Shown piece by piece: positions 3,470 to 64,000 of a stretch of 64,000 nucleotides of DNA. The stretch is from Raja brachyura. Taxonomy: Eukaryota. How positions within the stretch are numbered: position 1 is the first letter of the stretch; every line of letters starts with the position of its first letter. The DNA is taken from contig OY740813.1 of assembly GCA_963514005.1 (NCBI GenBank), forward strand, positions 17,174,001-17,238,000, given 5' to 3'. The notes beneath the pieces were generated by a model. That model saw only the letters and a list, made by a program, of their open reading frames with translations, had not been told where the DNA came from and ran no database searches. A program made the position numbers and the translations under genes.

Positions 3470-4072
3470 TAGCGGAGCGGTACAGTTCTGCCTTACAACG
3501 CCAGAGACCCGGGTTCGATCCTGATTATGGGTGCTGTCTGTAAGAAATTTGTACGTTCCCCCTGTCACCCATACGGGTTTTTTCCGGGAGCTCCGGATTC
3601 CTCCCACACTTCAAAGACGTACAGTATATAGGCCAATTTGCTTGGTATAATTGTAAATTGTCCCTGGTGTGTAGGATAGTGTTAAGGGCCTTCTGCGACC
3701 TTGACAGGCGACTGCCGGCACCCGTCATAAGTCGCCGAAATTTTCAACATGTTGAAAATTCAGCGGCGACCTGAAAGACGCTACGACTCTTTGGAGACCT
3801 CTCAGAACCATACAGGCGACCCCTGGCGACATACCCCTTACAGCCTGTATGGTCGTGAGAGGACTCCTATGGTCGTGAGAGTCGTAGCGTCTTTCTGGTT
3901 GCCACTGAATTTTCAACATGTTGAAAATTTCGGTGACCCATGACGGTTGCCGGCAGTCGCCTGTAAAGGTCGCGTAAGTGGAACATACCCTTTAGTGTAC
4001 GGAGATGGCTGGTCGGCGTTGACTTGTGGGCCGAAGGGCCTGTTGCCGCACTGTATCTCTAAACTAAACTAA
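3470..4072 (+). mobile_element. HE1-type tRNA-derived SINE, split by a MITE
   Basis: B box GGGTTCGATCC. CR1-like tail GGGCCGAAGGGCCTGTT...(CTAAA)n. Confidence 0.9.
3685..3991. mobile_element. PIF/Harbinger-like foldback MITE nested in an HE1 SINE
   Basis: TTA on both sides (3682-3684, 3992-3994). AGGG...CCCT ends. Arms are near-complete inverted repeats. The SINE resumes after it. Confidence 0.85.
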
Positions 4073-15960: not shown

Positions 15961-16542
15961 CAATGTTCTCAAGTTTACCTTTAGAGGAAAGAGAGTAAAG
16001 GCCACTGAGCCCACCAGGAGCAAATTCTAGTTTCTATTGCAACCCTCAGCTAATGCATGGCTGTGTATTACCAAGAGATTTCTCTTTAGTCAGACATCAA
16101 ATATTCGCAGAGCAATTACTTCCTTCCTTTCCATATTTTTAATGTTTCGTGTTTGTAACTGATCCTACTCATAATCATCCCAATTACTCTGGAGGCTTGC
16201 AATAAATTTTCAACAACATTAAGCAATCTTTAATGTTGAAAGCATGGCACATTGATATATCCTTTCTTGGGCCTTTTTATGATGTTTGAACTCTCTCTGG
16301 TAACTGTGCAGCTTTAGCAGTTCTGCACCTGATGTTTAAGGGGATCTAGGGAGAGTGCATAGAAGATAGGATAGATACATGGGGCAAATGTTGCAAATGT
16401 CAAGTTCCTGCAAAAAATTCTTGACTTAATGTCCTTGCCCATAATATCCATTCTGAACCAGGTGCAAAGTTAAACTAATCTCTTCTGCTGTACATGATCC
16501 ATAACCCCATATTCTCGTCATATCACTGTGCCTAGTTAAAAG

Positions 16543-16974
16543 CAAAGATCCTATAGCGGAGCCCTCTAGTCCAGCGGACGAAGCTGTTGCCGCGGGAGCT
16601 CCGGAAAAACAGGTCACCAACCTGTGACCTGCGAGCTCCCGACGATTTAGTCTACTGGCTCGCGGCCAAACCTCCAAAGCCAGGCCGCCGTCGCCACCGG
16701 GACACAGCTTCAGCCCCTAGTCAGGCCGCTCCGCCGGGACACAGCCTCAGCCCCGAGTTGGGCCGCTCCGCCGGGATACAGCCTCAGCCCCAATTCGGGC
16801 CGCCGCCTCAACCCCGAAGACGGAGGCGGAAGCAAAGATCATATCTTTGGGCGGAAGCAAAATGGCGGAGGTTGGTTGCTGAAATGGGTCCTATAATTAC
16901 CCATGAATCTGCCCATGACCGTACTATGCGTTTTACGTGGGAGTTGGCCATCTTGCTCTGCTATAGGATCTTTG
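16543..16974. mobile_element. Non-autonomous DNA transposon (MITE), probably P-element superfamily (hAT not excluded)
   Basis: 20-bp TIR CAAAGATCCTATAGC(G/A)GAGC. Perfect 8-bp TSD GTTAAAAG (16535-16542, 16975-16982). GC-rich interior with tandem CAGCCTCAGCCCC...GCCGCTCCGCCGGGA units. Sits in a CR1 3' fragment. Confidence 0.9.
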
Positions 16975-17006
16975 GTTAAAAGCCTCTGAAATGCTACCAT
17001 CATATC

Positions 17007-17073
17007 CAGGGTCGGCCTTAGGTGCAGGGTCCAATTGGGAACAATTAGTCTAATTGGCTTAAGGCCGGCCCTG
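17007..17073. mobile_element. 67-bp hAT-type mini-MITE
   Basis: TIR CAGGG(T/C)CGGCCTTA. Perfect 8-bp TSD ATCATATC (16999-17006, 17074-17081). Confidence 0.88.
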
Positions 17074-17967
17074 ATCATATCTACCACCACTGGTAGCGCT
17101 TTCCTGTCACTCACTGCCCTCTGGGTAAAAAAAAACCAGCCCATTTATCTCCTTTTAACTTTTTCCCTCTCACCTTGAAGCTCTGGTCTCTAATCTTTGA
17201 CATTTCCACCCTGGAAAATATACAATTCTGACTGTCTACCCTATCTATGCATCTCATAATTTTATATACTTCTATTAGCATACACATTGTGATATGAACT
17301 TATTAGTTTAATTTGAACCCACTGTGACAGTTAAACCCTTAATATTCAGAGTCTGGGTTCTACTTTCACCCACTTCTGCTCATCTAATCCCCATTCAAAA
17401 GCTCCCCCTTAGATTTGCAAATTCTATTTCCAAAGAGCTGCGGAATATCACTCCTGATATAATCATGTGGGTTATATCCCAGTGAATGTTGGCCTTTAAG
17501 TCCTTGATAATATTAAAATGCAAAAATAGATCATGGGAGTCCAAACAGTAAATAACATTTGTTAACATCTGGCACAAGCGTGGAGAAAATCTCATTTATC
17601 ATTCTGACATTTCAACCTGCAATCAAAGCCCACATGAAAACAGATGGAGGATGAATCAGCTCATGCTGATTCCAACTGCTCAATATGATTAACAATTCTT
17701 TCGTGTCATTCATTGAGATTCATTTTCCGGCCTGCTAGTTGAAGACAATAGCATGGAATTATTTTTTGGAAACATTGGAGGTTGAATCATGAATGCATTC
17801 ATTTTATATTATGAATGCATGAAATACCATAATAGCAACGAAGTTCATCTCGAAACTCCTGGCCCTTGTTCTTGTGGCCTCTATCTGCAACTGGCTTCTA
17901 GACTTCCTCATGGTCAGTCCTCAGTTGGTTCAAATTGGTCATTCCGTTTCCTCCTTGCTCAATGCTG

Positions 17968-18195
17968 GGAGGCACAGTGGCGCAGCAGTAGAGCTACAGC
18001 CTTACAGCGCCAGAGATCTGGGTTCAACCCTGACTACGCGTGCTGACCGTACAGAGTTTGCACGTTCTCCCTGTGTAACCATGTGGGGTTTCTCTGGGTG
18101 GTCCGGTTTCTTCCCACATTCCAAAGACATGCAGGTTTGTAATTGCTTTCTGTGAATTGTCCCTAGTGTGTGGGATAAAACTAGTGTGAATGTAT
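17968..18195 (+). mobile_element. HE1-type SINE 5' part (3' part at 23039-23095, split by DIRS copy A)
   Basis: The halves are colinear with intact copies. Confidence 0.88.
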
Positions 18196-18420
18196 AATAG
18201 TAAGATTAAACGAGAACTTACCAGTTTTAAGTTTGATCTTGATTTTATGAGGAGTTACGATGAGCGATTACGTGAAGAAGGCCATCAGTCGTCATGCGCG
18301 TCAATCTTCAAAGCAGCGGTGTGGGATCACAGATAAGACAAGTTGACCTGAAGATAGTAAGATTGGGAGAACTAGAACTACCAGATGACCTGATAATATG
18401 AGGGTTGGGAGCGGTGGGCA

Positions 18421-18530
18421 CGTAATTGCTCATCGTAACTCCTCATAAAATCAAGATCAAACTTCAAACTGGTAAGTTCACGTTTAATCTTACTATTTTA
18501 CTTTGGAGTCACGTGAGTGACTACGTGAAG
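18421..18530 (-). repeat. DIRS internal complementary region (ICR), the circle-junction template
   Basis: 18421-18497 is the reverse complement of the terminus 18196-18272. 18498-18530 (TTACTTTGGAGTCACGTGAGTGACTACGTGAAG) matches the other terminus. The two parts join as CTTACT-ATT-TTAC. Confidence 0.92.
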
Positions 18531-18722
18531 ATTTCAAAGCTCTGTGATTTCACGCCGGTTCGAGTCCACGCATCACACACTGAATGGATTGACCATGGAT
18601 GAGTGAGAAAAAATTAATGCATTCAGACATAACGTAGTTAGGTAACAATACTGATGCTTTAATGTGAAAAACAAAATGATAGCGACCCTGCCCAACCTGG
18701 GTGGAAACTATAAAACAGAATT

Positions 18723-19680
18723 TTAAATGGTACATGCAAACACCCCCAGTCCGGCAACGGGTTTATTATAAAACCGGTGGAACATCCTTTCATTGGCCCA
18801 TCCTGCAGCCGCTAAAATGTTGTCGAGGGGCATGTCCATAGCCCTTGCTGCCGACGTTGATGCAGCCCTGGTGGAGTGAGATTTGTAAGTGTCAGTATTC
18901 ACACCTGCACCCGCCAGTACCCCCTTTAACCATCTGGAGATGGTTTGTGCTGATACCCTGTGGTTTTTTTTTTGTGGCTTATTAGGACAACTAACTCAGA
19001 GCCTCTGAGGCTCCTCGTGACTTTAATGTACTGGTGCAAGTGTGCGACTACACATAATCGTGGATCTTCGGGGTATGCCAGGAACTCAAGCTTGGGCCCT
19101 GGTATCCCTGGCCTGCTCTGTTTAACTAAATCATAGATGTCGAAGGTTATGGTGTTTACAGTGGTGTTCATGTTGTCCAGTCGCAGCTTGTGCAACGTCT
19201 GGACTCATTGCGCCATTACCAGCGCCATCAGCATGACCACCTTGAGGGTGAGCTTGGTTAAGGATAGTGGGGTGGCTGGGGCCCACTGACGAAGTAGTGT
19301 TAGCACCACGCTAACATCCCATGTGTCCATATACTGTGGCCTGCGGGGTGTAGTGTCGTATATTCCCTTCATGAACCTGGTAATAAGGGGATGTGTTTCC
19401 ACCAGGTGGGGCCCCGTTTCCAACACTAAATATGAGGATAGTGCACTCCTGGCACTGTTGATGTAGCCTAATTTATGGTCATAATATAAAGTTGACAGAA
19501 ACTCCAGTATATCTGTGATGCACACTGTGTCATATGAGATGTTGGAGGCATGACAGTACATCTCCCACTTCTTGATGTGAGAGACATACTGCCTTTGTAT
19601 ACTGTCCCTCCAGGCTGCTGTAATGACATTCACTGTCCGGTCAGCCAGTCCGAGTCCCAGGTATGGTCTCCTCAGAATCT
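18723..19680 (-). pseudogene. DIRS copy A tyrosine recombinase, disrupted
   Basis: SAM-like N-terminus (INSARSALS, HPLITRFMKG). LMALVMAQ*VQTL box I. Manual translation of 18723-18920 gives KSHSTRAASTS...AAAGWANERMFHRFYNKP (HxxR, W, Y). Confidence 0.92.
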
Positions 19681-21600
19681 GCAAACCAATAAATTGATTT
19701 GGCATGTAGTGGGTGGTTGCCCCCCGTTACTGGGTGTACCAGCAGCTCCCTGCTGTTGGGGACAGCCATGAAAGGCTGTGTCATTATTCCCAGGACTAGT
19801 GGGAACCAAGATTGCATAGGCCAATCTGGCACTACCAAAATGCCGGTGACATTGTCTTGCTTTATTTTAGCCAAGCATCGGCTGATGAGGCAAAATGGAG
19901 GAAAAGCATACAAGAACATTCCTCCCCAATGCAGTGTGAACGCATCTACTGCCACTGCACCTGGGTCTGGCTCCCATGAGACATATTTGGGTAACTGGTG
20001 ATTCAATCTGGAGGCAAACAAGTAAATATCTGGCATGCCATATCCGGCAACAATGTCGGTAAACATGACATGATTCAACATCCATTCTGCGTTATCATTG
20101 AATTTCCATGATCTAGTGTCCGCCACCGTATTATATCTACCTGGTAGATAAATAGCCGTGACCCAAATGTTCCTTGCAATACACCAATGCCAAAGAAGGT
20201 TTGGCAATTTGTCACATGATACAGATTTGATTCCACCCATGTGATTGACATACGCCAATGTCAATCTGTTGTCAATCTGTAGTTGAACATGCACATGATG
20301 CATATTGCTGCAATAACCCTTTAAACCATAGAGTGCTCCCAACAACTCTAAGTAGTTAATGCCATATTGCTGTAGTATTAAGGACTCCTGCACATTCCAT
20401 CTGCCCCCGCTACTGGAGATGGTATCTGTTGCTCCCCAGCTCAGGCCACTTGCATCAGTTTGTAATATTACCGATGGTGTATCAATTTAAATTTTCTCAG
20501 AGCAGTGATGTTTATTCGTAGCCTACCAGTGTAATTCTGCCATGGCGTCTGGTGGTAATTGCGTATGTTTCCCGAATTGGCCTGTGTGGGATTTGACAGC
20601 CCGTAACTTTGCACTTTGTAGATTTTGGTAGTGCAAAGGTCTGAAAAGCTGGAAAAGCTGCCACAAGCATGCCAATTACACTTGCTACTTGTCTGATTGT
20701 TGGCTGCTGGTTAGCAATTAGCTTATTGCAGGCTTCCATTAAGTCTGATTGCTTACCACTTGGCAGAGTCACTGACATTTGAATTGAGTTAATTGTGAAC
20801 CCCAGGTAATCAATTACCCTGATTGGAGTCAATTTTGACTTAACTGGATGGATTAGGAATCCCAACCTCTAAAACCTCTCAAACATGAGTTTGGTAGCTG
20901 AAACAGATGATTTAGCTGATTCCTTAGTGTCCCCAATTATTAGAATGTCATCCAAATAAACCATCGCCATGTGATTCTGAGCTCGTAGTAGCCCCAGAAC
21001 TGGTTTTAGTAATTTTGTAAATAGTCTGGGAGCTGAAGTCGGCCCATTAGGCAATGCTTTGAATTGCCACAGCTGCCCCACCCAGTTAAATTTCAAATAT
21101 CTCCTGTGCTCCCTGTGAATGGGTACTGAGTAGTATGCATCTTTTAGATCTATGCATGCCATATTACACCCTTTGGAAACCAGCTGGATGGCTGTGCCAA
21201 AATTATCAATTTTTAAATGTTTATACTGCACATGGATATTGAGTTCCGTAAAGTCTTGGATGATATGACTTCCTCCATCCTTCTTTCGCTTTGGGTAATA
21301 TGTTGGAAACAAATTGGTGTGATTCCTGGTTCGACCTCTGAATCACCCCTTTTGTATGTAAAGCCTGAATTTCAGCTTGTACCTCAAATCTTTCCTGTTG
21401 TGAGAACACATATGTGCGGTTTGGTAAATTTTGTGTGGATGGTGATGAATCAAGAAGGAACTCAACTTTAAACCCTTGTACACTGTGCAGTATGAACGAG
21501 TCTGCTGTGATCCAATTCCATTCATTCAAAAAATGTCGCAATCTCCCCCCAACTTGTGAGTTAGTGATGTGTAAGGTGTTCCACAAGGAACTAGGTTCTC
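19672..21600 (-). pseudogene. DIRS copy A pol: reverse transcriptase, RNase H and adenine-methyltransferase-like domain, disrupted
   Basis: IDLKDAYYSVP, ALPNG-TSAPRLFTK and VYLDDILI (RT). INYLEL, DN and ADTRS (RNase H). DIYLFASRLN...AVDAF...YAFPPF (MT-like). Confidence 0.93.
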
Positions 21601-22820
21601 CTACCTTGGACGTTGCTGCCGGTGTGGTCCTGGCTTCCTTCCTCGTGCCATGGGAAAGAGGTCTGATGGCGGATGCCCCCCCCACATCCGAGCCCCCACT
21701 GGGGCCTATCCCTAAAAATGACCTTGGTGCTTGCAGCTCGAGTCTTCCTCCTGTTCCGGAGCCCCTAGACTGGTTTTGCCTGGTGTTGAAGTCGGCATAG
21801 GGGTGGGCCTGGTGTGAGGAGCCCCTGAGTGTAGTTGGTGCTTGGCTCATGAGGCATATGGTCTTGGGCTCATCATCCAGCTCTGCCCCAAATAGATAAT
21901 TGGCCGGCTGGACGTTGCTGGCTTTGCACAGCACAGCAAATTTGGGTTGAGTGCCGGCCGTATTGGGTTTTTACGCAAACAGGTAATTTCAAAAAGTGCA
22001 TTACAGAGATGCCCCACAGCGTCCTGCTGTGTCTCTGTCAGTGGCCTCCCATCTACGGACCTTGCAAAGGGCCGTTATGCCTGAGGCCAATAATTTTAAA
22101 AAATTGGCGTTTGACCTTCTGGTCTCTTACCCCCACTCAAATATGGCCCCAGATGGCGTGATTGACGGCCGGCACATTGAGGGAGGCACAGTTGGCAGGT
22201 GTGTTGTATCTGCCGGCGGTCTCCTCCATAACCAGGTCCTTGAGCTGATGCGACGCCAGGTAGTTAATAGTGGTGGCCAGCTCTTCATCTAGGGGTGCTC
22301 CGGTAGGAGTAGGAATGGCGAATTTGGATGACAATAGAGGCACTTCGGCCCCATGCCCCCAAGAGTGTTCACCTGATGTGCCTCCCTGCTCTGAGTCAGG
22401 GTAATACTGACTCTATGTACTCCCCTCTCCAGAGAGGGAGACACTTCGCAGCCCTATGAATGGTGCTGCTAGTGCAGGCTCCCATGGAGACCCGGCGTGA
22501 TACTGCTCCCTCCTCTGGAGCAGATCAGTCTGGAGCCACCTCTCCAATAGGTGCTCCATCTGGGAAAGGCGCCCGCAGATGCTTCCCAGTGTTAGAGGGG
22601 ATCCCTCCGGCCCGGACTCGTCTAAGTCTACTGGCCTGGCAGACTTGTGAGTGGCCTTGTGCCCCGGCGGGACTGCCACGGTGCTCTCCTGAAGCACCAA
22701 GTCTGCTGCCACTGGTTCCACAACCAGCGGCCTGGAAGGTGACTCGGACAGTCGCCCGCTACCCGCACCTCCGCGGTCTTCTGTAGCTGGCTTCGCAGAC
22801 CATCTCCTCACCTTCAACAT
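21600..22820 (-). pseudogene. DIRS copy A gag-like ORF1, frameshifted
   Basis: ORF pieces 22413-22820, 22137-22343 and 21221-21934 align by eye with copy B gag (LDEELATTINYLASHQL vs LGEELAASINYLALHQF; VPAVNHAIW vs VPAINHAIW). Confidence 0.8.
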
Positions 22821-24855
22821 GGTAGGTTCTTTCCGCTAGAGAAAACAGAAAACCGAACCCGCCAAAACGACCGCAGAGTAGTTTTGGAAACACTTACCTC
22901 GGTATTTAAAACTTACCGCTGGAAGGATGCAACACGCCTGCCAGCCAGTCGTTGGCGCATGCTTCAGACGTAATGACGCGCATGACGACTGACGGCCTTC
23001 TTCACGTAGTCACTCACGTGGTCGGTGGTCGGTAAAATCACTGGTCGGTGGTAGCCAAAGGGCCTCTCTCCACACTGTACCTCTGAACTAAAAAATGAAA
23101 CTGGTGTTCCTCAAGTTGTGTGCTCAGCCTTTTGCTCTACTCTTTGCGAACCCATGACTGAAAGGTTTGGCATGTCCACAAGGATTCTGTTAAACTGCAG
23201 ATGCTCCATAGAGAGTATTCTGGCACGATACATCTCAGCCGATGTGGCAACTGCTCTGCTCTTGACCACCTGAACCAGTAGAGAGTGGTTCATCACACTC
23301 CAGTCCAATTTTAGTCTCGTCACTCACCTCCATCCAGTCCGTCTCCACAATGCGTTGTTTCAGCAGGGCTGGAAAATATCAAGGATGCCTTCCATCCTGG
23401 CTATTCCCTTTTCTCTCTTCTATCTTCAGGGAGATGATACAGGAGTTTGAAAGACCATTTATCCAGACTAAAGGACAGCTTCTGCCCCACCGCCCTTAGA
23501 CTCCTGGACCAATAATCTCTTTCTCACCCCCTTCCTGGAGCTGCTGCCACGTACTTTTACTGTTAACTCCACCCCATTTGCTTATTCCATTATTGAAGTT
23601 TAGTCCTCAATCTGATGGTCTCGGCCCAAAACGTCACCTATTCCTTTTCTCCATAGAGGCTGTCTGACCCGCTGAGTTACCCCAGCATTTCATGTCTATC
23701 TTCGGTTTAAACCAGTATCTGCACTTCCTTCCTACACATTGTACTTCAGTATTTTTTTACACTTTTCAAATTGCATTGCAATCTTTGCACCATATTGCTG
23801 ATTTGCTCCTGTCATTTATTAATTGCTGTATTTACTCAATGAGCTTTATACAAACAAGGAATATAATTGCACATTTCTCAGTCTTGTGGCCTGTCATTTG
23901 AACATACACACGTATTTATGCAGCATTATTACGTGCCTTACACAAAAAGCTGGAGTAACTCAACCGGTCAGGCAGCATCCCTGAATCTCAGTCTGAAGAA
24001 GGGTTTCGATCCGAAACATCGCCTATTCCTTTTCTGCAGAGGTGCTGCCTGACCCGTTGAGTTACTCCAGCATTTAGTTTCTGCCAGTGGCGTAAACCAG
24101 CATCTGCAGTTCCTTCCTGCTGAATATTACACGACCGACTGCTATAAACCTAATCATTGAATGTAAACAAAATTGTGCTTTACAAAATAGCCCAACAGCC
24201 CAAGGCCCAATTTCTGCAGAATCTGAATCCATGTTTTATTGTCATATATCCAAGATAGATCAATGAAAATCTTACTTGCAGCATACCAAAAAGAAGAATG
24301 TGTAGGAAAGACCGGAACATCGCCCATTCCTCCACTCCAGATATACTACCTGTCCCACTGAGTTACTCCAGCATTTTGTGTCTATCTTCAAAAAAGGAGA
24401 ATGCTCCATCTGCTGCTTAGCGCGGATGTTAATCTTTTTACTTTGTTGATTTGGTGAGAACGCAGTTATGCGAGCGTGTTAATTATTCCATGTCAGTTTT
24501 GTGCCCGTATATCTTTTCTAAGTGCCCCCATTACCCTAGAGCTCTGTTAATATGGGTAGTCAAACAATCTGCTTGCTTTCAACCTTTTGCCATACTAATA
24601 TGATTTCAGTCATATTTTAGCTTCAGAAACATTCTTTAGTAGATTAGAGCCACTATGCTGATCATTTTATCTTTTCTTAATCCCTTTATCTCCAATTACT
24701 CTCAATAGTTGTGTCTGCTTCTACTGTTGGAGCTGAGGGTGGAATCTTCAAAGATAATGACTGCAAATTGTTACCTACAGGGGTTCATCCATCTCAAGAG
24801 CTTTTGCAAGTCAGGAAGGTAAAAACACTTCAGAAAAGAGCTTGAAAATGAGAAG

Positions 24856-32440: not shown

Positions 32441-33300
32441 GGGCAGCATGGTGGCGCAGTGGTAGAGTTGCTGCCTAAAGGGCCTGTCCCACCAGCATCC
32501 AACTCCATGCGATGAGCGTGATCAAACTAGAAGCGGGGGCCGCGCGGAGGTCGGGTGATCCCTGTACAGGGCCGTTCCCACCAGCATGCGCCTGCATGCG
32601 GCAAGCGCGACCAAACCGGCAGCGAGGGCCGCGCGGAGGTCGGGTGAGTGGCGCAATGCGGCGCAAACTTGGAGCGAAGTCTTAAAGGTAAGTTCGCCAG
32701 GACAGAGAGGGGCACACAGAGAGGGGCACCGAGGCACACACACAGAGGGCCATGGAGCCACACACAGAGAGGGTCACGGAGGCACCTACAGAGAGGGTCA
32801 CGGAGGCACGACGTCGAGACGGTGTGTAATGCGTCGAGGCAACTGCGAGCCGACAAGCCGTTGCCGCGCGGAATGTTTGAACAGTCAGTTTTTCGGAGCC
32901 CCGCGGGATGTCGGGACGAGCTCCGCACGGCTCCGGTGATCGAAGTGGGACCGGCCCCGCGACGCCGGACGGCTCAAGCGACCACGTTAGGTCGCGGTCA
33001 TCGCATAGAGTTACATGCTGGTGGGACAGGCCCTTTAGAGTGCCAGAGACCCAGGTTTGCTATTTGTATGAAGTTTGTGTGTTCTCGCTGTGACCGCGTG
33101 GGTTTTCTCTGGGTGGTCCGATTTCCTCCCACACTCCAAAGATATACAGGTTTGTAGGTTAATTGGATTTGGTAAAAAAAATTGTAAATTGTCCCCAGTG
33201 TGTAGGATGGCACTAGTGTACTGGGGCGAAAGTTGGTCAGCGCGGACTCAACGGGCCGAAGGGCCTGTTTCGGCACTGTATCTCTAAAGTCCAAAGTCTA
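32441..33300 (+). mobile_element. HE1-type SINE, split by a MITE
   Basis: Head at 32441-32478; the body resumes at 33035. Confidence 0.88.
32479..33034. mobile_element. PIF/Harbinger-like MITE nested in an HE1 SINE head
   Basis: TIR AGGGCCTGTCCCACCAGCAT...ATGCGATG, flanked by TAA and TTA. Splits the SINE motif gctgcc-TTA-cagcgccagagac. CpG-rich, with internal repeats. Confidence 0.88.
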
Positions 33301-34830: not shown

Positions 34831-35889
34831 TAGATTAGATTAGATTACCTTTATTGTCATTCAGACCTTCCGGTCTGAACGAAATTTCGTTGCCTGCAGT
34901 CATACAAAAATTCAAAATAACTTAAAAATAACAAAAACACACAAATTTAACATCCACCACAGTGAGTTCAGCAAACACCTCCTCACTGTGGTGAAAGGCA
35001 AAAGTCTTAGTCTTTGTCTCCTTCCCTCCTTGTACTCCCTCTGCGCTGAGGCGATCCAGGCCTCTGGTGTATTGTCCCTGCCGGGTGTTGGTACCGCTGC
35101 CGCCACCGGAACGCCGGAATGCCGCCGCCGCTCCAAATCGGGCCGCCGCCTCCACCGGAATGCCGCCACAGCTCCAGGCCGGTCTGCCGCTCCAGGCCGG
35201 GACGCCGCCACCGGAATGCCGCCGCCGCTCCAGGCCAGGACGCCGCTCCAGGCCGGGACGCCGCCACCGGAACGCTGGAATGCCGCCGCCGCTCCAGGCC
35301 GGGACGCCACCACCGGAAACGCCGGAATGCCGCCGCTCCAGGCCGGGACGCCGCCACCGGAATGCCGCCGCCGCTCCAGGCCGGGACGCCGCCACCGGAA
35401 TGCCGCCGCCGCTCCAGGCCGGGACGCCGCTCCAAATCGGGCCGCCACCACCGGAACGCCGGAATGCCGCCGCTCCAGGCCGGTCCGCCGCCGCTCCAGG
35501 CCGGTCCGCCGCTCCAGGCCGGTCCGCCGCTCCGCCGCTCCAGGCCGGTCCGCCGCTCCAGGCCGGTCCGCCACAGCTCCAAGTCGGGCCGCCGCCGCCA
35601 GGCCAGGTCAGTCGAGCCACCGCCGCTGCAGCGAACGCCGCCCGAGGCCGTCAGCTCCGCCATTAGGGCCTCAGCGCAGACGGAGACAGGGGGATACAAC
35701 AAGAAAAGGTTGTATCCCCCCGAAGGAAGGGACTAAGCCCTGTTTCTCCCACCCCCCCCCCCATACAATCTAATAAACTAACTAAACTAACATAAACTAA
35801 ACAGACATAAACAAAAACAAACAAAAAAAAAGAAAAAACAGACGGACTGCAGGCGAGTCGCAGCTGCCAGGCAGCGCCGCCACTTCCGG
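34831..35889 (-). mobile_element. Non-autonomous retroposon with GC-rich VNTR core and LINE-like tail
   Basis: TAAAT at both ends (34826-34830, 35890-35894). Flanks rejoin to match 29935-30000. 5' CCGGAAGTGGCGGCG; 3' TGACAATAAA plus (TAATC)n tail. Confidence 0.8.
35095..35600. repeat. GC-rich minisatellite built from GCCGCCGCTCCAGGCCGG / GACGCCGCCACCGGAAT modules
   Basis: Modular tandem repeat visible directly in the sequence. Confidence 0.95.
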
Positions 35890-35997
35890 TAAATGTTGGA
35901 ATCCCCACGGTTCCCTTGAGGCTGGGTGCCAAGCACAAGGGGAGATTGGGGGGGGGGGGGGTAAATTGGATGTGGAAGGAATTGGAGAAGGGAGTAA

Positions 35998-36686: not shown

Positions 36687-37225
36687 ATTGGGGATGAGTG
36701 TAAAAGGACGGAGGGGAGTGGGGGCAAGTAAAAAGGTGACAAGGGTTGGGGGGGAAATGCCTGGTTGAGGGTGGGTGGGGGTGAGTTGGGGGAAGGTTTA
36801 ATGTGATGTGCTTCTGAAGACCACCAGTCCCAACTTAATGTGTTGCTGATGTCAGCAAAGAGATTATTCATGGTCTTATATATTTGTTCTACGAATAGAG
36901 TGATAGGCTAGAGCGGAACTCTACTTGCAATGGGTCTCCAGTGATCACAGTCTGACACTGGCCTCAGGCTGGCAAATGCACTGAGTGTGGAGAGGATTGG
37001 ATGAGGTGGAGTGAACGGGTAATTTTATTTCGGAGTCACGTGAGTGATTCCGTGAAGAAGAAGCCCGCCAGTCGGCATGACGTCTGACGCATGGCGCAGC
37101 GACCGGCTGCGAAGAGCAGCGCTCCTCCAGCGGTAAGTTTTAAAAAGCCTCAGGTAAGTGTCAAACTTGTTGGAGGTCGATTTTCTGCGCTTGTTAATTC
37201 TTGTTACACGAGGGCAAGTTCAAGC

Positions 37226-38352
37226 ATGAAGAAGTCGTTAGCAGCAAGGCGAGCCGTAGCCAAAGTGTCTAATGCCCGCGGGAGCGCGGGTAGCGGGCGG
37301 CCGCCTAGCTCATCCACGGAGTCGCTGGTAGTGACACAAGCGACTACAGACTTGGTGTCCAAGAGCACCGTGGCTACGTTGGAGGGGCGTAAGGCAACTC
37401 GAACGTCTGTCCGGCCGATAGACTCCGGTTCTCCCTCAAGAATGGATACCGTAGAATGGGTATCCAGGATGGAGCTCCTGTTGGAGAGGATGCTCCATCA
37501 AGAGCGCCGGCCTCTCCAAGAGCGCACGCCAGCAGCAACTACTGGGTTGCCTAGTATCTCCCTCTTGGAGGGGGAGAGTATACCGGGTCAGTACGATTCT
37601 GACGCAGACTCTGAGGGCTTAGTGTTGGAGGCCGCCCCATGGGACGAAGGGCAACAGCCAGAGGTCCCATTCCTGGCGGCCAGTTTTGCCGTCCCAATAG
37701 ACTCTGGAGAGCCACTGGGGGAAGAGCTGGCTGCCAGTATAAATTACTTAGCTTTGCACCAGTTTCAGGAACTGGCCATGGACACAACGGCCAAAAATTA
37801 TGACCCCTCAGAAAATTGTATTCCACTCAAAGTGCCGGCCATCAACCATGCCATTTGGGACCATATGGGACTAGGCATCCGAGCGCAGGAGTTGAAACTG
37901 CAACAGGTGCTGAAACTGCTCTCAGCCGGCATTTAGCCTTTTGGTAGGTTGATGGATGGTGGGCTCCTGACTGAAGTCCAGCAGGATGCCCTGGCTCTCA
38001 TGTGCAATGTGCACTTTGAAATGAACTGTCTTAGAAAGAGCGCCATCCGCCCTACCATTAACCCAAGGTTCGCTGCCTCGCAACATCCAGGGCCCGAACC
38101 TATTGTTCGGGGAAGACCTCGCAAAGAAGGTAAAGGAGCTAGACGAAGAGGCAAAAACCGTTGGGCTCATCAAGGCGCCAGTGACCAGCAGAACCCTTCG
38201 GCGACAATACCCTTACAAACGGTTTGCTGAAGCCGGGCCCGGACAAGGACCAAGCTGGCCATTCAATGTGCGCAGCTGGCGCACTCCAGCAGGAGTACGG
38301 GCAAACATGCCTTTTACATCCAGAGCCAGGGGACACAAAACTCCACCTGTAA
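37226..38352 (+). pseudogene. DIRS copy B gag-like ORF1
   Basis: ATG at 37226. ORF pieces 37091-37936, 37949-38230 and 38103-38462 (LFGEDLAKKVKEL-type motif). Homologous to copy A. Confidence 0.8.
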
Positions 38353-38354
38353 CC

Positions 38355-40289
38355 ATGGAGATAGGTGGGTCTGATTCTGGTCAAATCATATTGAGTGAGA
38401 ATTACCTACCAGTTGGGGGGAGGTTACCCAGGTTTCTCAAAGAATGGTGTAAAATAACATAAAACGTGTTTATACTGCAGAGTATACAAGGGTTTCAAAT
38501 TGAATTTATTCCCAACCTATGTCCACCCACCCAGCACAAGCCAGAGCGGGCACTCATTTTCTCACAACGGGAGAATTTGGAGATTCAAGCTGAAATAGCA
38601 AAATTATGTTTTAAAGGTGTAATAGAGAAAACAGTTTATCAAACCCATCAATTTGTGTCTAATGTGTTTCCTAGACCAAAGAAAGATGGTGGGTGTAGGA
38701 TTATTTTGGACCTGACAGCACTTAATCCGTTTGTGCAGTATAATCATTTTAAAATGGAAACGTTCGCTACTGCCAAGCAATTGTTTTCCAGAGGGTGTTA
38801 TATGGCATGTATAGATCTTCAAGATGCATATTATTCAGTGCCTGTTCATAAAGAGTATCGTAGATATTTGAAATTTAGCTGGATGGGGCAATTATGGCAG
38901 TTTAGAGCACTGCCTAATGGGTTAACCTCAGCCCCTCGCTTATTTACCAAATTGCTAAAACCAGTGCTTGGGTTATTATGGTCACAGGGCCATATTGTAA
39001 TGGCCTATTTGGATGACATCTTAATAATTGGAAACACCTTTGTGGCAGTCGAATCATCAGTTTCAGCTGTTAAACTCATGGTTTAGAGGTTGGGGTTCAT
39101 TATTCACCCAGCTAAATCCAAATTGGTGCCGGTTAACACAATTGACTATTTGGGATTCACAATAGATTCAATTAACATGTGTGTAACTCTGCCCAAAGGC
39201 AAGAGATTAGATTTAATTGAAGGCTGTATCAAGCTCTTGAGGGAGCAATCACCTTCAATTAAACAGGTCGACAGCTTAATTGGTGAATTGGTAGCTGCCT
39301 TCCCAGCTGTGCAATATGGACCTTTGCATTACCAACATTTACAGAGGGCAAAGGTACAGGCATTGAGAATACATGCAGGTCATTTCAATCGGCCCATGCA
39401 CTTACCATCTGCAGCCATTACTGAAGTACAGTGGTGGATTAGAAACATTTCAAATTGTTCTAGCAAAATTTTGATCGAAACACCTTCAGTTGTTTTGAGG
39501 ACTGATGTTAGTGCCCTAGGTTGGGGTGCTACTGACACCAGGCCTATCTGTGGAGGCAGATGGAATATGCATGAGGCGTTGATTCTCCAATCGCATGGAA
39601 TTAATTATTTAGAGCCTCTAGGAGTATTTTATGGGCTCAAAGCTTACTGTACCACTAAACATCACTTACATGTTTAGCTTCAGATTGACAACACCACGGC
39701 AGTGGCGTATGTCAATCACATGGGTGGAATCAAATCGAAATCTTGTGATGGCTTGGCTAACCTTATTTGGCACTAGTGCATTAAAAAGAATATTTGGATT
39801 TCAGCTGTCTATTTGCCAGGCAGATTCAATATGGTGGCAGACATATTGGTCACGCAAATTCAATGACAACACTGAGTGGATGTTGAATCATGATGTATTT
39901 AAGGAAATTGTTCTCTGGTATTGGGTACCAGATATCGATTTGTTTGCATGCAGACTTAATCACCAGGTACCGAAATATGTTTCATGGGAACCAGACGCAG
40001 GGGCAGTGCAGGGAGAATGCATTCTCGCTGTACTGGGACGGAATGTTTTTATGATTTTCCCCCCTCCTGCCTCATCAGTTGGTGCTTGACTAAGATCAAA
40101 CAGGACTCCGCTTTAGGGGTTTTCGTGGTACCCGACTGGCCTACACAGCCATGGTTCCCCTTGATTTCGGGTATTAGTACACAACCTATTGTGGTGGTTC
40201 CAAAATGTCAAAATCTGTTAGTGCACCCTGTGACTGGAGGTCAACACCCATTGTATGATCGTCTAAATTTGTTGATTTGCAGATTTTAA
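38355..40289 (+). pseudogene. DIRS copy B pol (RT-RNase H-MT), multiple stops and frameshifts
   Basis: PRPKKDGGCRIILDL, IDLQDAYYSVP, LPNGLTSAPRLFTK, AYLDDILI, TDVSALGWGA, INYLE, PDIDLFACRLN, VVPDWPTQPWF. Confidence 0.94.
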
Positions 40290-40642
40290 GAAGGTCATAT
40301 TTGGGTCTGGGACTATCCAATCAGGCCGTGGATGTCATCACAGCATCCTGGAGGGATAGTACGAAAAGGCAGTACATCTCTCATGTCAGGAAATGGAAGG
40401 AATTTTGTTTACAGGGGAACATTACATACCACACAGCCTCCATCCCAGATGTTCTCGAATTTCTGTCCAACTTGCATTTCGATGAAGGGTTGAGCTATAG
40501 TGCCATCAAAAGTGCCAGGAGAGCTTGGTCCTCGTACCTATGCTGGGGGTCAGACCTTCCGTCTATAGGATCTCATCCGTTAATATCCAGATTTATGAAG
40601 GGTGTTTTTAATTCCAATCCTCCCAGGCCGAGGTACTCTGAG
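40281..40642 (+). pseudogene. DIRS copy B tyrosine recombinase, N-terminal fragment
   Basis: ASWRDSTKRQY...LSYSAIKSARRA...HPLISRFMKGVFNSNPPRPRYSE, fused directly to the right ITR. Confidence 0.88.
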
Positions 40643-40904
40643 GCCGACTGGCGGGGTTCTTCTTCACGTAATCGCTCATCGTAACTCCTCATAAAACAAA
40701 GATCAAACTTCAAACTGGTAAGTTCTCGTTTAATCTTACTATTTTGGTGGTGTACGATTCTACGATTCTATGAATTATATCTATTTAGTCTGGCCTACCA
40801 TTGCCACCACCCTTGTCAATAACAAAATCATGAAAGCCAACTAATAAATAAGAGCCAAGAGTCAAACGTTAAGAGTCTCAGGATCTGGCATCGCTTCTGA
40901 AGTT

Positions 40905-44613: not shown

Positions 44614-47335
44614 TGGCTCTCACACCTGCACTACTCGTTCACACCCGGCAGGTATTCAACCTCTCTGGAGCGTGCCACCTCTGTGTCCAGCACTGTAACC
44701 AGGATTCTGAACATGTGGCATCAGAAAGCCCTGTATAATACATGTGGCATCAAAAAAACCCTTCTGGATCATTTTGTTCCACACCATCTTGGCAATAGTT
44801 CATCATCAGTATAATTAAAGAGTGCTCTGTGTGAATTTGTTTTCATTCCCAATCTGCTGCCAGGATATTTTCTTTATGTGCACTGCAGTACATTTTGCAG
44901 GTTTCTAGACAATGTGTAACTCAGCATCCTGGCCTTAGTGGACACGAGGAAAATTGCCCCCAATGGTGCCAATACTAGCCTATCCTGGTGAGAAAATCCA
45001 AAAAGTCTTTTCCACTATTTTGGTCAAACAGCTTTAAATGGAAGCTTTGTGAATGCAATGTCTAGTGTTAAGGAGCTCATTTATATTCCATGGTATTTTT
45101 CTGGGCAGTATGTATCAACATTTTCCATGGATAAAATTCATTGCTTAAAAGGTATTTCATGAAAAATTGAATTAGGTACTGTATGAATGCAAGTATATTG
45201 TTATGAGGAGGGATTTCTTCATTCAGAGGTTGTAGAATTCTTTACCACAGACAACTGTGGAGGCCAAGTTCTTGGATACTTTTTAAGTGGAGAATGATAG
45301 GTTCTTCATTACTAAAGACATCAACGGATACAGGAAGAAGGCAGGAGAATGGGGTTGAGAGGGGAAAATAGATCAGTGCAGATGCAATGGGCCAGATGGC
45401 CTAATTCTGCTCCTATATCTTATGATTTTATGGTCTTTTGATCTATGCACGTGCACTGAAAAGTTTAAAGAGCTGGTTTGAGGTGCAATATTCTTAACAT
45501 ATATTGTGGGAGCGGGGATTCCCAATTCTAAAATGTATCGGCTTAAATCTGGAAAATTGAAACATTTAAGGAAATTCACTGCCATTCTCAATTTGCTTCA
45601 AGCTTCAAGTTCTTGAGTGGAAATATCACTAATACTTTGTCCTGGACTAGACACATGGAATCCATAGCAAAAAAAGCACACCAGTGCAGCAACTTCCTCA
45701 GAAGACAAATGAAGTGTGACATGTCTCCAATATATCTTGCCAACTGCTACAGATGCACCATAGAAAGCATCCTATCGGCATGAATCTCACCTTGGTTTGG
45801 CAACACCTCTGTCGAAAACTGTAAGAACTCGCAGTGGATTGTGGATGTAGTTGCAGGACAGAGGGACGTGGGAATATAGGTCCATGGTTCCATAACTGTG
45901 GTGAGTAAGGTGGACAGTGTGGTGAAGAAAGCTTCACACTTTGTTTGACACGCTTGTCTTCATAGGGAAGGGTTGACAAGCAGTCCAAGATCACATTTAG
46001 AAAGGGTGCAGCGTAGATTCTCCGTGATCTTACCGGGGCATTGCGGGCTTGTAGTATGGACAGAGTTTGGAGGATTAAGTGGGCTTAGGGCCAAATCAAG
46101 GCAAATGGGACTCGCCCAGTATGCCAACTCGGTCAGCATGGAGTAGGTGAACTAAAGAGCCCGTTTCGTGCTGTACAGCACTCTGACTCCCGCCCAGTTC
46201 ATCATATAAATCTGACTCTCCGCCATTGACTCCATCTACACTTCATACTACCTTGGAAATGCACCCAATATAATATGGACAATTTCAGCCCAGTCATTCC
46301 ATCTGTTCCTCTCCCCCATTTGGCAGGACATTACCTGAGCATGCAGGCTTGACTTTCTCTGCAATTGTAATGCAATAACACTGTAAGACTATATTCTGCA
46401 CTCTGGTGTTCTTCTCCTTGCACTACCTGTTGTACTTGCGTGCGGTGCGATTGTACTCCTGTGCAGAATGATTTGCCTAGATACAGCAAAAACTTGTTTG
46501 TGTTCTATCTCGGTACAATTGACAACAGCAATAAACCAATACCAGCACGATTTCATCAATGCTGTAATCTAACATTTCCTGATTTCCACTAGGAATCGGT
46601 GCAGACATTTCAGATCAGGCTTTGTGTGGGGACAGCGACTGAATGACGTGGCAACTGTCCAAAGAAAACAGTGGAATGCCAACAGGACTTTGGATCACAG
46701 TTGCATACTTTTGGAAGAGCAGAGAAACAGGATCTCTGGAAGACCCATTAAACTGGCATCAAACAGATCTATTGTGCATTCTGTGAAGCTCAATTCTGAT
46801 AATTCCACCAATTTTTCTTTCTTGCACTGGTGACGGCTGAACACAACACAGTACTGGAATATATCCAGGGAATTAAGCCTGGTTTGGGGCACAAATATTA
46901 ATAAAACAGAAGGGTCTCGACCTGAAATGTCACCCATTCCTTCCCTCTAGAGATGCTGCCTGTCCCACTGAGTTACTCCAACATATTGTATCTACCTTCG
47001 CTTTAAACCAGCATCTGCAGTTCTTTCTTACACAAAACAAAACATCTGTAATCTCTATGACTAAACCATAATCTGTGGCAGCAGGGAGGAGGATTACAGT
47101 ATATTCCGATTTCTGCACTTGGATATTTTTATGTAATAATATAAACCTCAGCTGGTCAGATAATCACAGCAGAGTTCTTTTAAAATGATACATTGCCTAT
47201 ATCAAAGATATTATTTCTAAATTAATTACATTCCGTAACTAAACCAGTTGTAAGGGAAGCAGATATAATTCTCATGGCTGTATAATGTAGCAAATGGCTG
47301 CTTTGGGACACATTTTTAAAAGGAAAAACAAATCA

Positions 47336-59089: not shown

Positions 59090-59803
59090 GATGCCTTGTT
59101 AACAGTCTGTCTGTACTTTTCTTCTTTGTGTCTGTTTTGTATGTGTTAAATGTATGTTTTTTTGTGTTCTTTAGTTTGTTTTATGTGGGGGGTGGAGGGG
59201 TGGGGGAGTTGGGGGAAACGTTTTCGAATCGCTTACCTCGACTGAGGAGCGATTTTTTTCCGTATCGTATCTCCGTTCACACTGCGGCCTAACATAGTGG
59301 AGTTGGCAGCCTTTGCTGGAGATCGACCGGGAGCTCCATCGCGGGAGCCAGTGGATTTACCATCACGGACATCACGATCACTGTCGGGGGTCATCTTTGG
59401 GGTTCCAACCATGGGAGCACGCAGGACTTTAACATTGCGGAGCATGCGGTCTCTGGTTAGAGACTAACATCGGGGACGCCAAGCAGCAGGGGTTTTTTCG
59501 ACCGCCCCGAAGCAGGAGTTTCGCTCACCCCGACACGGGAACTTCGATCGCCCCAACGCGGGAGCCTCGCTCGCCGGATGCGGGGGCTTTGACTGCCCCG
59601 ACTGCGGGAGAATAAAGAGGAAGGAGGTTGGACCTTATTGCCTTCCATCCCAGTGAAGAACGTGGGGAATCCACTGTGGTGGAAGTTTATGTCAACTTTT
59701 ATGTAGTTGTGTGTCTTGTTTCTTTTTTTTAGTATGTATTTCTGTATCTTAATTGGTACATGTGACAATAAACTGACCTTGAACCTTGAACCTTGACCCT
59801 TGA
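59090..59803 (+). mobile_element. Relative of the 34831-35889 retroposon, without the VNTR
   Basis: Same block order: CAGTC(C/T)GTCTG, T-rich, G-run, TCTCCGT...GGCC(C)TAA, GC-rich core, CAGTGA...CACTGTGGTGGA hairpin, TGACAATAAA plus (CTTGAAC)n tail. Confidence 0.7.
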
Positions 59804-62280: not shown

Positions 62281-62384
62281 GGGTTGAAATGGCATCCACT
62301 AAGAAATTGGCTCAGTCAGTAGCACGTGGGATCCATGTGCCTGAAACCTACCCAGCAACCGTCACACACTGAATGACATCATCA

Positions 62385-62535
62385 GGCACACACCGGATGA
62401 CACCACCAGCCACACACCTGATGACATCACCACCGCACACCTGATGACATCACCAGCCACGCACCTGAGGACCTCACCAGCTGCACACCTGATGACATCA
62501 CCATCCGCACACCTGACGACAACAACACTTGCACA
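62385..62535. repeat. Minisatellite, about 23-bp unit CACACCTGATGACATCACCAGC
   Basis: About six degenerate copies visible. Confidence 0.9.
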
Positions 62536-64000
62536 CCCTGTGTTTGCCTGTCACACTGTCACAAACCGATGCAACCTGTGACTTATACCAAACGTCCAAG
62601 GTGCAACAAGGAGCCTGCCAAGCCACTTTGTTGCATTAACATCTATTTAGAGGGACCATCTGCTCACATTGACCAGGCAGCTGTCAAACTGCTGGCAAGT
62701 AGCTCAGGCACCTCCAGAACTTCATGAGCGTGTAAATTAACATGACTACATGTCTTTCAGCATGCAACCTCTAATGTATTCAGTCAATGGGTGCCTCAGA
62801 ACCTCCTGTAAGAACTCAGACATAGACTTTTCTCAGCACTTTTCCATTCTCAATGACTCTAAAATAAGAATTTAGCATAATATAGGAATGTGGCAACAGT
62901 GATGGATGATCTTAAACTAATGCCATTGCAGCCTTAATGCCCCAGTGAGGGTAGCTATATCTGAAGAAGGATCTCAACCCGGAAATTCACCCATTCCTTC
63001 TCTCCAGAGAAGCTGCCTGTCCCGCTGAGTTACTCCAGCATTTTGTGTTTAACCCAGCATCTGCAGTTCTTTCCTACCTATATCTGATGTTACTTGTACA
63101 TCTTTGGCCAGCTGGCATCACAGCACGGGTTCATTGGCCTCCAGGTATCTATGGCTCAAATTCACAGGATACTGGGCTTGGACTTAACAAAGTAAATAAT
63201 GTGCCCGCAGTGTGCTTGGTTGGAATTAGTGCTCAATTTTCAGGTTCTAGCTGTTATTTAACATGATTGACAGTATTGATTATAGCACTAAGTCTATGAC
63301 CCGTTTCTGAACAAGTTGAAAGTTTGCACTTCCATTACATATTGCTGAAACAACATCACATCCAGTGCAGATATTTGCTGTGTGAGTTACTTCTGGACCT
63401 CCTGAAGGTTCACCGTTGGTGGTTCGGATAAGACAGAAACTAACTTTCACAAAACTTGCTCAAAAAGGAAAAAAAACAAAATGTGAATATTTCTAAAGCT
63501 GCAGAATGGAATGTGATGCAGCCCACTTGCTCTTACAATCCTTTTAATAATTCACCTGTGAAATGCATGCAAATAATCTAAATGAACTGGAAAATTAACA
63601 GGAAACCCTTTAATTTGGATTGGTAATTTGCTACAAAATCAACCAAAATATAGCACAGCTGATCACAGAGATTGACACGATGAAACAGAGGGGTGGAAGC
63701 GAATTCTCTCTTTCGTTTATTCTTTGGCAGACCACCAACTTTTAATTAGACACAAAGCTCGGCGGGACAGGCAGCATCTCTGGAGAGAAGGAATGGGTGA
63801 CGTTTTGGGTCGAGACCTTTCTTCAAACACAGTCTATCTTCGGTTTAAACCAGCATCTGCAGTTCCTTCATACACCAACCTTTAATTCATGTTTTCACAG
63901 GTGTGTGGCCATTACTTGTTCAAAAGTATTTCAGGTCAATCCCAAGGTTGTGTGAGATGCTGTATAAAACCAGCTCCATCTTTCAAGGATGAATAGAATT

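Follow-up and report, generated by a model that had tools for sequence, protein, structure and literature searches.

A 17-bp sequence (the stub, 16833-16849) in the 64-kb stretch of skate DNA analysed here (the window) is probably the donor-site excision footprint of a P-type transposon, a reading that concerns one site. The stub lies within a 432-bp non-coding TIR element, hereafter the host, and is flanked on both sides by the 8-bp direct repeat GGCGGAAG (16825-16832 and 16850-16857), while its first 8 nt and last 7 nt are the outer TIR ends of the surrounding element. The first-pass annotation had described an 8-bp TSD that flanks a 17-bp footprint with the terminal 8 and 7 nt of the host TIR, and this description holds letter for letter. 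The stub is a scar without function. Judged by analogy with characterized systems, it would as a direct excision product fit P and not hAT, and it appears to work like the donor-site footprint of a P element, an analogy that does not by itself place the family in the P superfamily. The weights given below to this and the competing readings are our judgement and were not computed. The features of the stub are as follows.

16825..16832, + strand: left 8-bp repeat, putative TSD of a lost inner element (from sequence reading and the shuffle test)
16833..16849, no strand assigned: 17-bp stub, with 8 nt from the tip of one TIR, 2 central nt and 7 nt from the tip of the other
16850..16857, + strand: right 8-bp repeat, putative TSD (from sequence reading and the shuffle test)
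16858..16861, + strand: four flank bases identical to the TIR start, by which the direct repeat becomes 12 bp

When read as 8 plus 7 nt, the stub contains two central nt that are unaccounted for. Comparison of the stub with all simple joins of both TIR ends yields an equally simple parse, in which the left 12 nt and the right 7 nt are joined at a 2-nt AT microhomology and from which the stub is one substitution away. The identity of 16858-16861 with the TIR start has a chance of about 0.01 for either flank, and the putative empty site and the left junction of the host share 7 nt in register, with a chance of about 1.5e-4 if target preference is left aside.

The stub structure is real and far beyond chance. 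A generic pattern, defined as an 8-bp direct repeat around 14-40 bp with a minimum of 7 perfect inverted bases, is present once in the window, at this site, and in none of 150 dinucleotide shuffles; relaxed to 6 inverted bases, it is found twice in 150 shuffles. Two 7-nt TIR ends at most 40 bp apart, with the direct repeat ignored, are less rare (11 times in 300 shuffled windows), so that much of the significance is carried by the TSD. This last frequency speaks for a chance arrangement or an assembly error, to which we nevertheless assign a negligible probability: with the 8-bp repeat included no shuffle matched, the analytic chance of the stub inside the 432-bp host, given the host TIR, is about 2e-10, and the window is free of N.

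The host itself is bounded by 20-bp TIRs with one mismatch, whose outermost 15 positions are perfect, and by a perfect 8-bp TSD, and its ends can pair as a 20-bp stem. Its features are listed below.

16543..16974, no strand assigned: whole host, non-coding TIR element of 432 bp with an 8-bp TSD; no match in Pfam or Rfam
16535..16542, + strand: left host TSD, 8 bp, identical to 16975-16982
16543..16562, + strand: left host TIR, 20 bp; it agrees with the right TIR at 19 of 20 nt, and the inverted match ends at 16562
16563..16691, + strand: GC-rich interior, homologous to a stretch of a little-skate gene model (28 of 44 aa identical to residues 51-94 of XP_055505059.1)
16694..16804, + strand: three GC-rich tandem units of 37 bp, resembling a GC-rich repeat at about 35100-35600
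16862..16954, + strand: right subterminal part of the host, without a relative (its match in the window does not rise above the shuffled null, and there is none at the protein level)
16955..16974, - strand: right host TIR, 20 bp, from the inverted-repeat match
16975..16982, + strand: right host TSD, 8 bp, identical to the left copy

The host had been taken for a MITE belonging to a family. It is short, non-coding and bears a TIR and a TSD, all of which are MITE features, but it is the only copy of its family found in the 64-kb window by blastn and local alignment. The 7-nt start of the TIR has 25 matches in the window, of which none besides those at the host ends and in the stub is part of the element. 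Neither a second stub nor an empty site was found in the 64-kb window. The region 16000-18600 gave 0 Rfam matches, and a search of bacterial and archaeal genomes with the 20-nt TIR pattern, made as a host contamination check, also gave 0 matches. A stop-free frame of 140 codons (16557-16976, + strand) that runs across host and stub was considered as a gene and rejected as spurious, as it has no family and no full-length relative. Next to the host, 32 bp downstream, lies a 67-bp mini-element (17007-17073) with CAGGG-starting TIRs and a perfect 8-bp TSD (16999-17006 and 17074-17081), which we take to be hAT-like.

The ORF that runs across the host, used as query in a full HMMER search, returned one match at E values up to 0.001, XP_055505059.1, a gene model of Leucoraja erinacea (little skate) described as leukotriene B4 receptor 1-like, whose C-terminus is a 7tm_1 receptor. 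The match covers only 16563-16691, with the stub site outside it, and this one homologue of the host interior speaks for a skate-like lineage and fits the cartilaginous-fish lineage that had been proposed. The N-terminus of XP_055505059.1 is probably a repeat wrongly taken into the gene model, i.e., a repeat-derived false exon. The aligned stretch starts directly interior to the left TIR, and the six codons that lie within the TIR show no agreement with the skate protein, though the match could also end at the TIR through an indel or an exon boundary. At its left end the host probably has no more than 20 nt of TIR, next to sequence with a different continuation elsewhere, which would make the host either a deep one-sided deletion or a carrier of captured filler. 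With one end down to 20 nt, the host may be a one-sided gap-repair product and not a mobile MITE; its asymmetric ends may be compatible with a one-off repair product, and copying may have brought in the stub together with the host. Word-index protein searches for an empty site via the translations of other copies found none, at a sensitivity low enough that one of them missed the known skate match, and exact look-up of three other ORFs of the window in the protein collection gave no match.

The three 37-bp units of the host and the repeat at about 35100-35600 align locally with a score of 93, compared with 44-54 for three shuffled queries, a null that does not preserve tandem structure. The GC-rich repeat as a whole extends over about 34836-35890 and consists of an 18-21-bp minisatellite, which resembles the host units, and a pentamer-repeat end; similar GC-rich stretches are found at about 32500-33000 and about 59100-59800.

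If the stub is a P-type footprint, an element with the host's TIR would first have entered an 8-bp site and duplicated the target. By the biochemistry of Drosophila P, its transposase would then have made a flush cut at each 3' end and a cut several to about 17 nt inward at each 5' end, so that each flank kept a single-stranded 3' tail of outer TIR. End joining would have trimmed and joined both tails, through either the AT microhomology followed by a later substitution or a 2-nt insertion, and both TSD copies would have survived because they were shielded by the TIR tails. The copy analysed here may itself be the site of the excision, or the event may date from one of its ancestors or from the template used in a repair that produced it. 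What is observed is the end product; the steps before it are reconstructed.

The stub compares closely with the excision junctions of Drosophila melanogaster P. The P transposase cuts with a 17-nt stagger (PMC7776569), and P excision leaves 17-nt non-complementary 3' TIR tails on the donor (PMC2895639), in agreement with the statement of the first-pass annotation that P leaves TIR overhangs at the donor site. In the P{wa} assay, the excision junctions share with the stub intact 8-bp TSDs, short TIR pieces from both ends and either a 2-nt AT/TA microhomology or an insertion of 1-3 nt (PMC2895639). By our tally of Table 1 of that paper, which counts 66 junctions from Rad51-mutant flies where the legend gives 68 sequenced, 63 of the 66 retain both TSDs and intervening TIR letters; one junction has the form 8+1+7 nt, and among short microhomologies AT/TA is the class most often used for joining (PMC2895639). 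The Drosophila junctions differ from the stub in being induced, in arising in a Rad51-mutant background from a known transposase, and in being mostly at least 25 bp long (PMC2895639), while the skate stub is a natural scar with an unrelated TIR sequence. Against a P-type origin of the 17-bp stub stand the result that none of the 315 ORFs of at least 62 aa in the window matches a DNA-transposase family, the failure to find a second stub or an empty site, and the length and join of the stub. Among the 63 junctions with both TSDs, 24 are at most 20 bp and 38 at least 25 bp, and only 4 fall at 12-20 bp (PMC2895639), so that stubs of this length are a minority in Drosophila; and the junction ignores the longer microhomologies of 4 and 6 nt that the TIR offers through its own palindromes, at TIR nt 5-8 and 9-14, joins at which would give stubs of 12 and 22 bp, respectively.

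The features that might assign the family to a superfamily point in different directions. The perfect 8-bp repeats at both host and stub are a P feature that is also found in hAT and Zisupton and hence is not diagnostic. The CA..TG termini are likewise those of P elements, and such termini are widespread across transposon families and therefore also undiagnostic (PMC2577343). The TIR begins with CAA and not with the CAT of P, a start that is a tendency and not a strict rule: strong conservation of the first 3 nt is described for P elements of both insects and vertebrates (PMC2577343), and CAT is found in Drosophila P and in zebrafish Pdre2 (PMC10983969). The P target motif spans 14 bp, the outer 3 nt on either side being copies of the TIR ends (PMC2577343), which would explain the CAA after the second repeat. 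Such copying is seen at 3/3 positions on one side and 0/3 on the other at the stub site and at 1/3 on each side of the host, or at 5/12 flank positions over these two sites. The host TSD agrees with the Ac/Ds and hobo target motifs at 6/8 positions and with the P motif at 3/8, and the stub TSD with Ac/Ds at 3/8, hobo at 3/8 and P at 4/8. The comparison of target motifs thus fails to separate P from hAT.

A direct hAT footprint is rejected, as both repeats are intact and the filler is TIR-derived. With the enzymes of hAT, MULE and Transib it is the flanking DNA that receives the hairpin (PMC5499845), and excision of Ds in Candida left flank deletions or palindromic insertions in 128/128 revertants, with element ends unreported in the accessible part of the study (PMC5873905). 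The first-pass annotation had stated that hAT excision leaves no TIR on the donor, which stands for the cut itself but not for its repair, as gap repair can rebuild the ends (PMC3814204); hAT membership with later gap repair is not rejected along with the direct footprint. Its further claim that the stub implies a once-active P transposase fails for the same reason: a single stub does not imply one, since ends can be rebuilt in Ac, P, Tc1 and Mutator alike.

An origin by internal deletion is the most probable of the alternatives, though we consider it unlikely. The inner element would be a hAT or a member of another flush-cutting family with an 8-bp TSD, shrunk to its tips either by abortive sister-chromatid gap repair after excision or by replication slippage across a TIR hairpin, and a stub formed in this manner would be uninformative about cleavage stagger. 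Abortive gap repair has been invoked for non-autonomous derivatives of Ac, P, Tc1 and Mutator (PMC3814204), and in maize 486 Ds-like elements share about 30 bp per end with Ac and otherwise contain filler DNA, much as the host does (PMC3260210). The fit of the host TSD to the hAT motifs and the 20-bp stem that the host ends can form agree with this origin, and the 67-bp element 32 bp downstream shows that very short elements with 8-bp TSDs are present here. Against it, the shortest of the 903 maize Ac/Ds-related elements belong to a class of about 400 bp (PMC3260210), although that survey required near-complete 11-bp TIRs and such a stub would be missed; two-sided resynthesis of only 7-12 nt lies far below the described Ds classes, and direct Ac/Ds footprints damage the flank and are without element ends (PMC5873905). 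Insertion may also be dispensed with altogether. A break in the host could have been repaired by template switching from the host's own ends, giving a 12-bp duplication with a 13-bp patchwork filler that mimics a TSD with TIR stubs, and alternative end joining often yields templated insertions (PMC2895639). The insertion is fully tiled by overlapping exact same-strand matches nearby, namely 16830-16840 with the left host junction at 16540-16550 (11 nt), 16837-16846 with 17073-17082 at the right junction of the neighbouring 67-bp element (10 nt), and 16843-16850 with the right host end at 16968-16975 (8 nt). Of 124 other 500-bp tiles, just 2 contain such a 10-nt match, and the 7 nt shared in register by the putative empty site and the left host junction are also in keeping with such copying. 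Yet the scheme needs three switches over 120-290 bp and has to stop at the TIR tip and reproduce the exact TSD length of the host by luck; the 7-nt match is partly explicable by shared target preference; and the 10-nt match is weak, as 3 of the 16 possible 2-nt fillers match equally long in the same neighbourhood, for which reason the neighbouring mini-element was downgraded as a template of the 2-nt filler. We consider template switching improbable.

Cleavage inside the TIR by a transposase other than P, from a group with 8-bp TSDs such as Zisupton/KDZ, would yield the same scar and seems to us slightly less probable again. Zisupton has TIRs and 8-bp TSDs (PMC12730594) and has been described from fish (cited in PMC3424704), and the TIR of the host lacks the typical CAT start of P. 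This explanation has no positive evidence, however: none of the 315 stop-to-stop ORFs of at least 62 aa in the window matches a DNA-transposase family in Pfam, and P is the sole superfamily with a documented long stagger in the literature examined, within the accessible passages of PMC7776569 and PMC5499845.

For the P-type reading, the closest counterparts by setting are the P-like elements of zebrafish, which carry 8-bp TSDs and were mobile (PMC10983969, PMC7776569). The Pdre2/zfTHAP9 elements resemble the skate case in coming from a fish and in having a short TIR, an 8-bp TSD, CA..TG termini and internally deleted copies; they differ in a 13-bp TIR with a CAT start and in 12-bp subterminal inverted repeats, and the likeness of the two TIRs is confined to CA (PMC10983969). 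In cell assays, zfTHAP9 excises with larger flank deletions and without detected integration, and the accessible text reports no neat TIR stub (PMC10983969). The host shares its layout with the P-MITEs of Anopheles gambiae (PMC1562414) and with BuT5 of Drosophila (PMC3698922), which are short and non-coding with P ends around an unrelated interior, whose TSDs are 8 bp and 8-9 bp, respectively, and for which an origin by gap repair on ectopic templates has been proposed (PMC1562414, PMC3698922). These elements form multicopy families with a known P master, and each of their ends retains tens to about 100 bp (PMC1562414, PMC3698922), whereas one end of the skate host shows only 20 nt. The maize hAT elements Ds1 and Ds-l4 are similar to the host as well, with 8-bp TSDs, lengths of at least about 400 bp, tips shared with the master and a filler interior (PMC3260210). 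In contrast to the stub, Ac/Ds excision yields flank deletions or palindromes and not tips (PMC5873905), and the accessible passages on maize Ds contain no class of TIR-only remnants (PMC3260210). As the layouts of P-MITEs and BuT5 and of maize Ds fit the host alike, the form of the host gives no means of telling P from hAT.

Footprints of this class have been described in fly experiments, and vertebrate P-like elements are also known. Our literature search, with most subscription journals outside its scope, turned up neither this TIR nor P-type elements of skates or sharks, nor any natural P-type footprint from a vertebrate genome. P-type elements in cartilaginous fish are unmentioned in the accessible passages of PMC12361510 and PMC3424704, as are footprints in those of PMC3573991, and the readable supplementary files of the skate genome paper (PMC12361510) contain no matching superfamily labels. 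The family may already be filed in Repbase or Dfam. We tentatively propose, as a possibility that falls short of probable, that the skate lineage harbours a family with CAA-starting TIRs that was cut by a long-stagger transposase, from either a divergent P/THAP9 branch or a convergent non-P group, and that left many scars. Skate assemblies may also contain many short palindromes of such ends, a possibility given little weight here.

If the proposal is true, scar lengths would be a natural record from which one could read, without the need for the enzyme, how far a vertebrate P-like transposase staggers its cuts and by which pathway they are repaired, and full cycles of insertion and excision would have occurred in cartilaginous fish, in contrast to zebrafish THAP9 with its lack of integration in cell assays. 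If such scars are common, an unannotated TIR family could be classified by its cleavage chemistry alone, the 17-nt stagger of Drosophila P could be tested in a vertebrate relative, and P-like transposons would be shown to have been mobile in cartilaginous fish.

Other repeats are present in the window. The Pfam matches among the 315 ORFs are confined to reverse transcriptase, tyrosine recombinase and one ALKBH8_N/ObR_Ig match. The former two belong to a pair of decayed elements with reverse transcriptase and tyrosine recombinase, at about 18190-22900 (- strand) and 37000-40750 (+ strand), which are mutually inverted, about 72-79% alike in their shared stretches and presumably DIRS-like; inverted arms of 86 bp are found at 18189-18274 and 18419-18504. 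The ALKBH8_N match lies at 45547-45780 (+ strand, E = 3.6e-07), and this model often matches C-terminal fragments of LINEs in fish. A strongly palindromic element of 307 bp (3685-3991), with AGGG..CCCT ends and located between TTA triplets within a SINE-like repeat, is one that we assume to be PIF/Harbinger-like, and a tandem array of a 24-bp repeat occupies 62334-62547.
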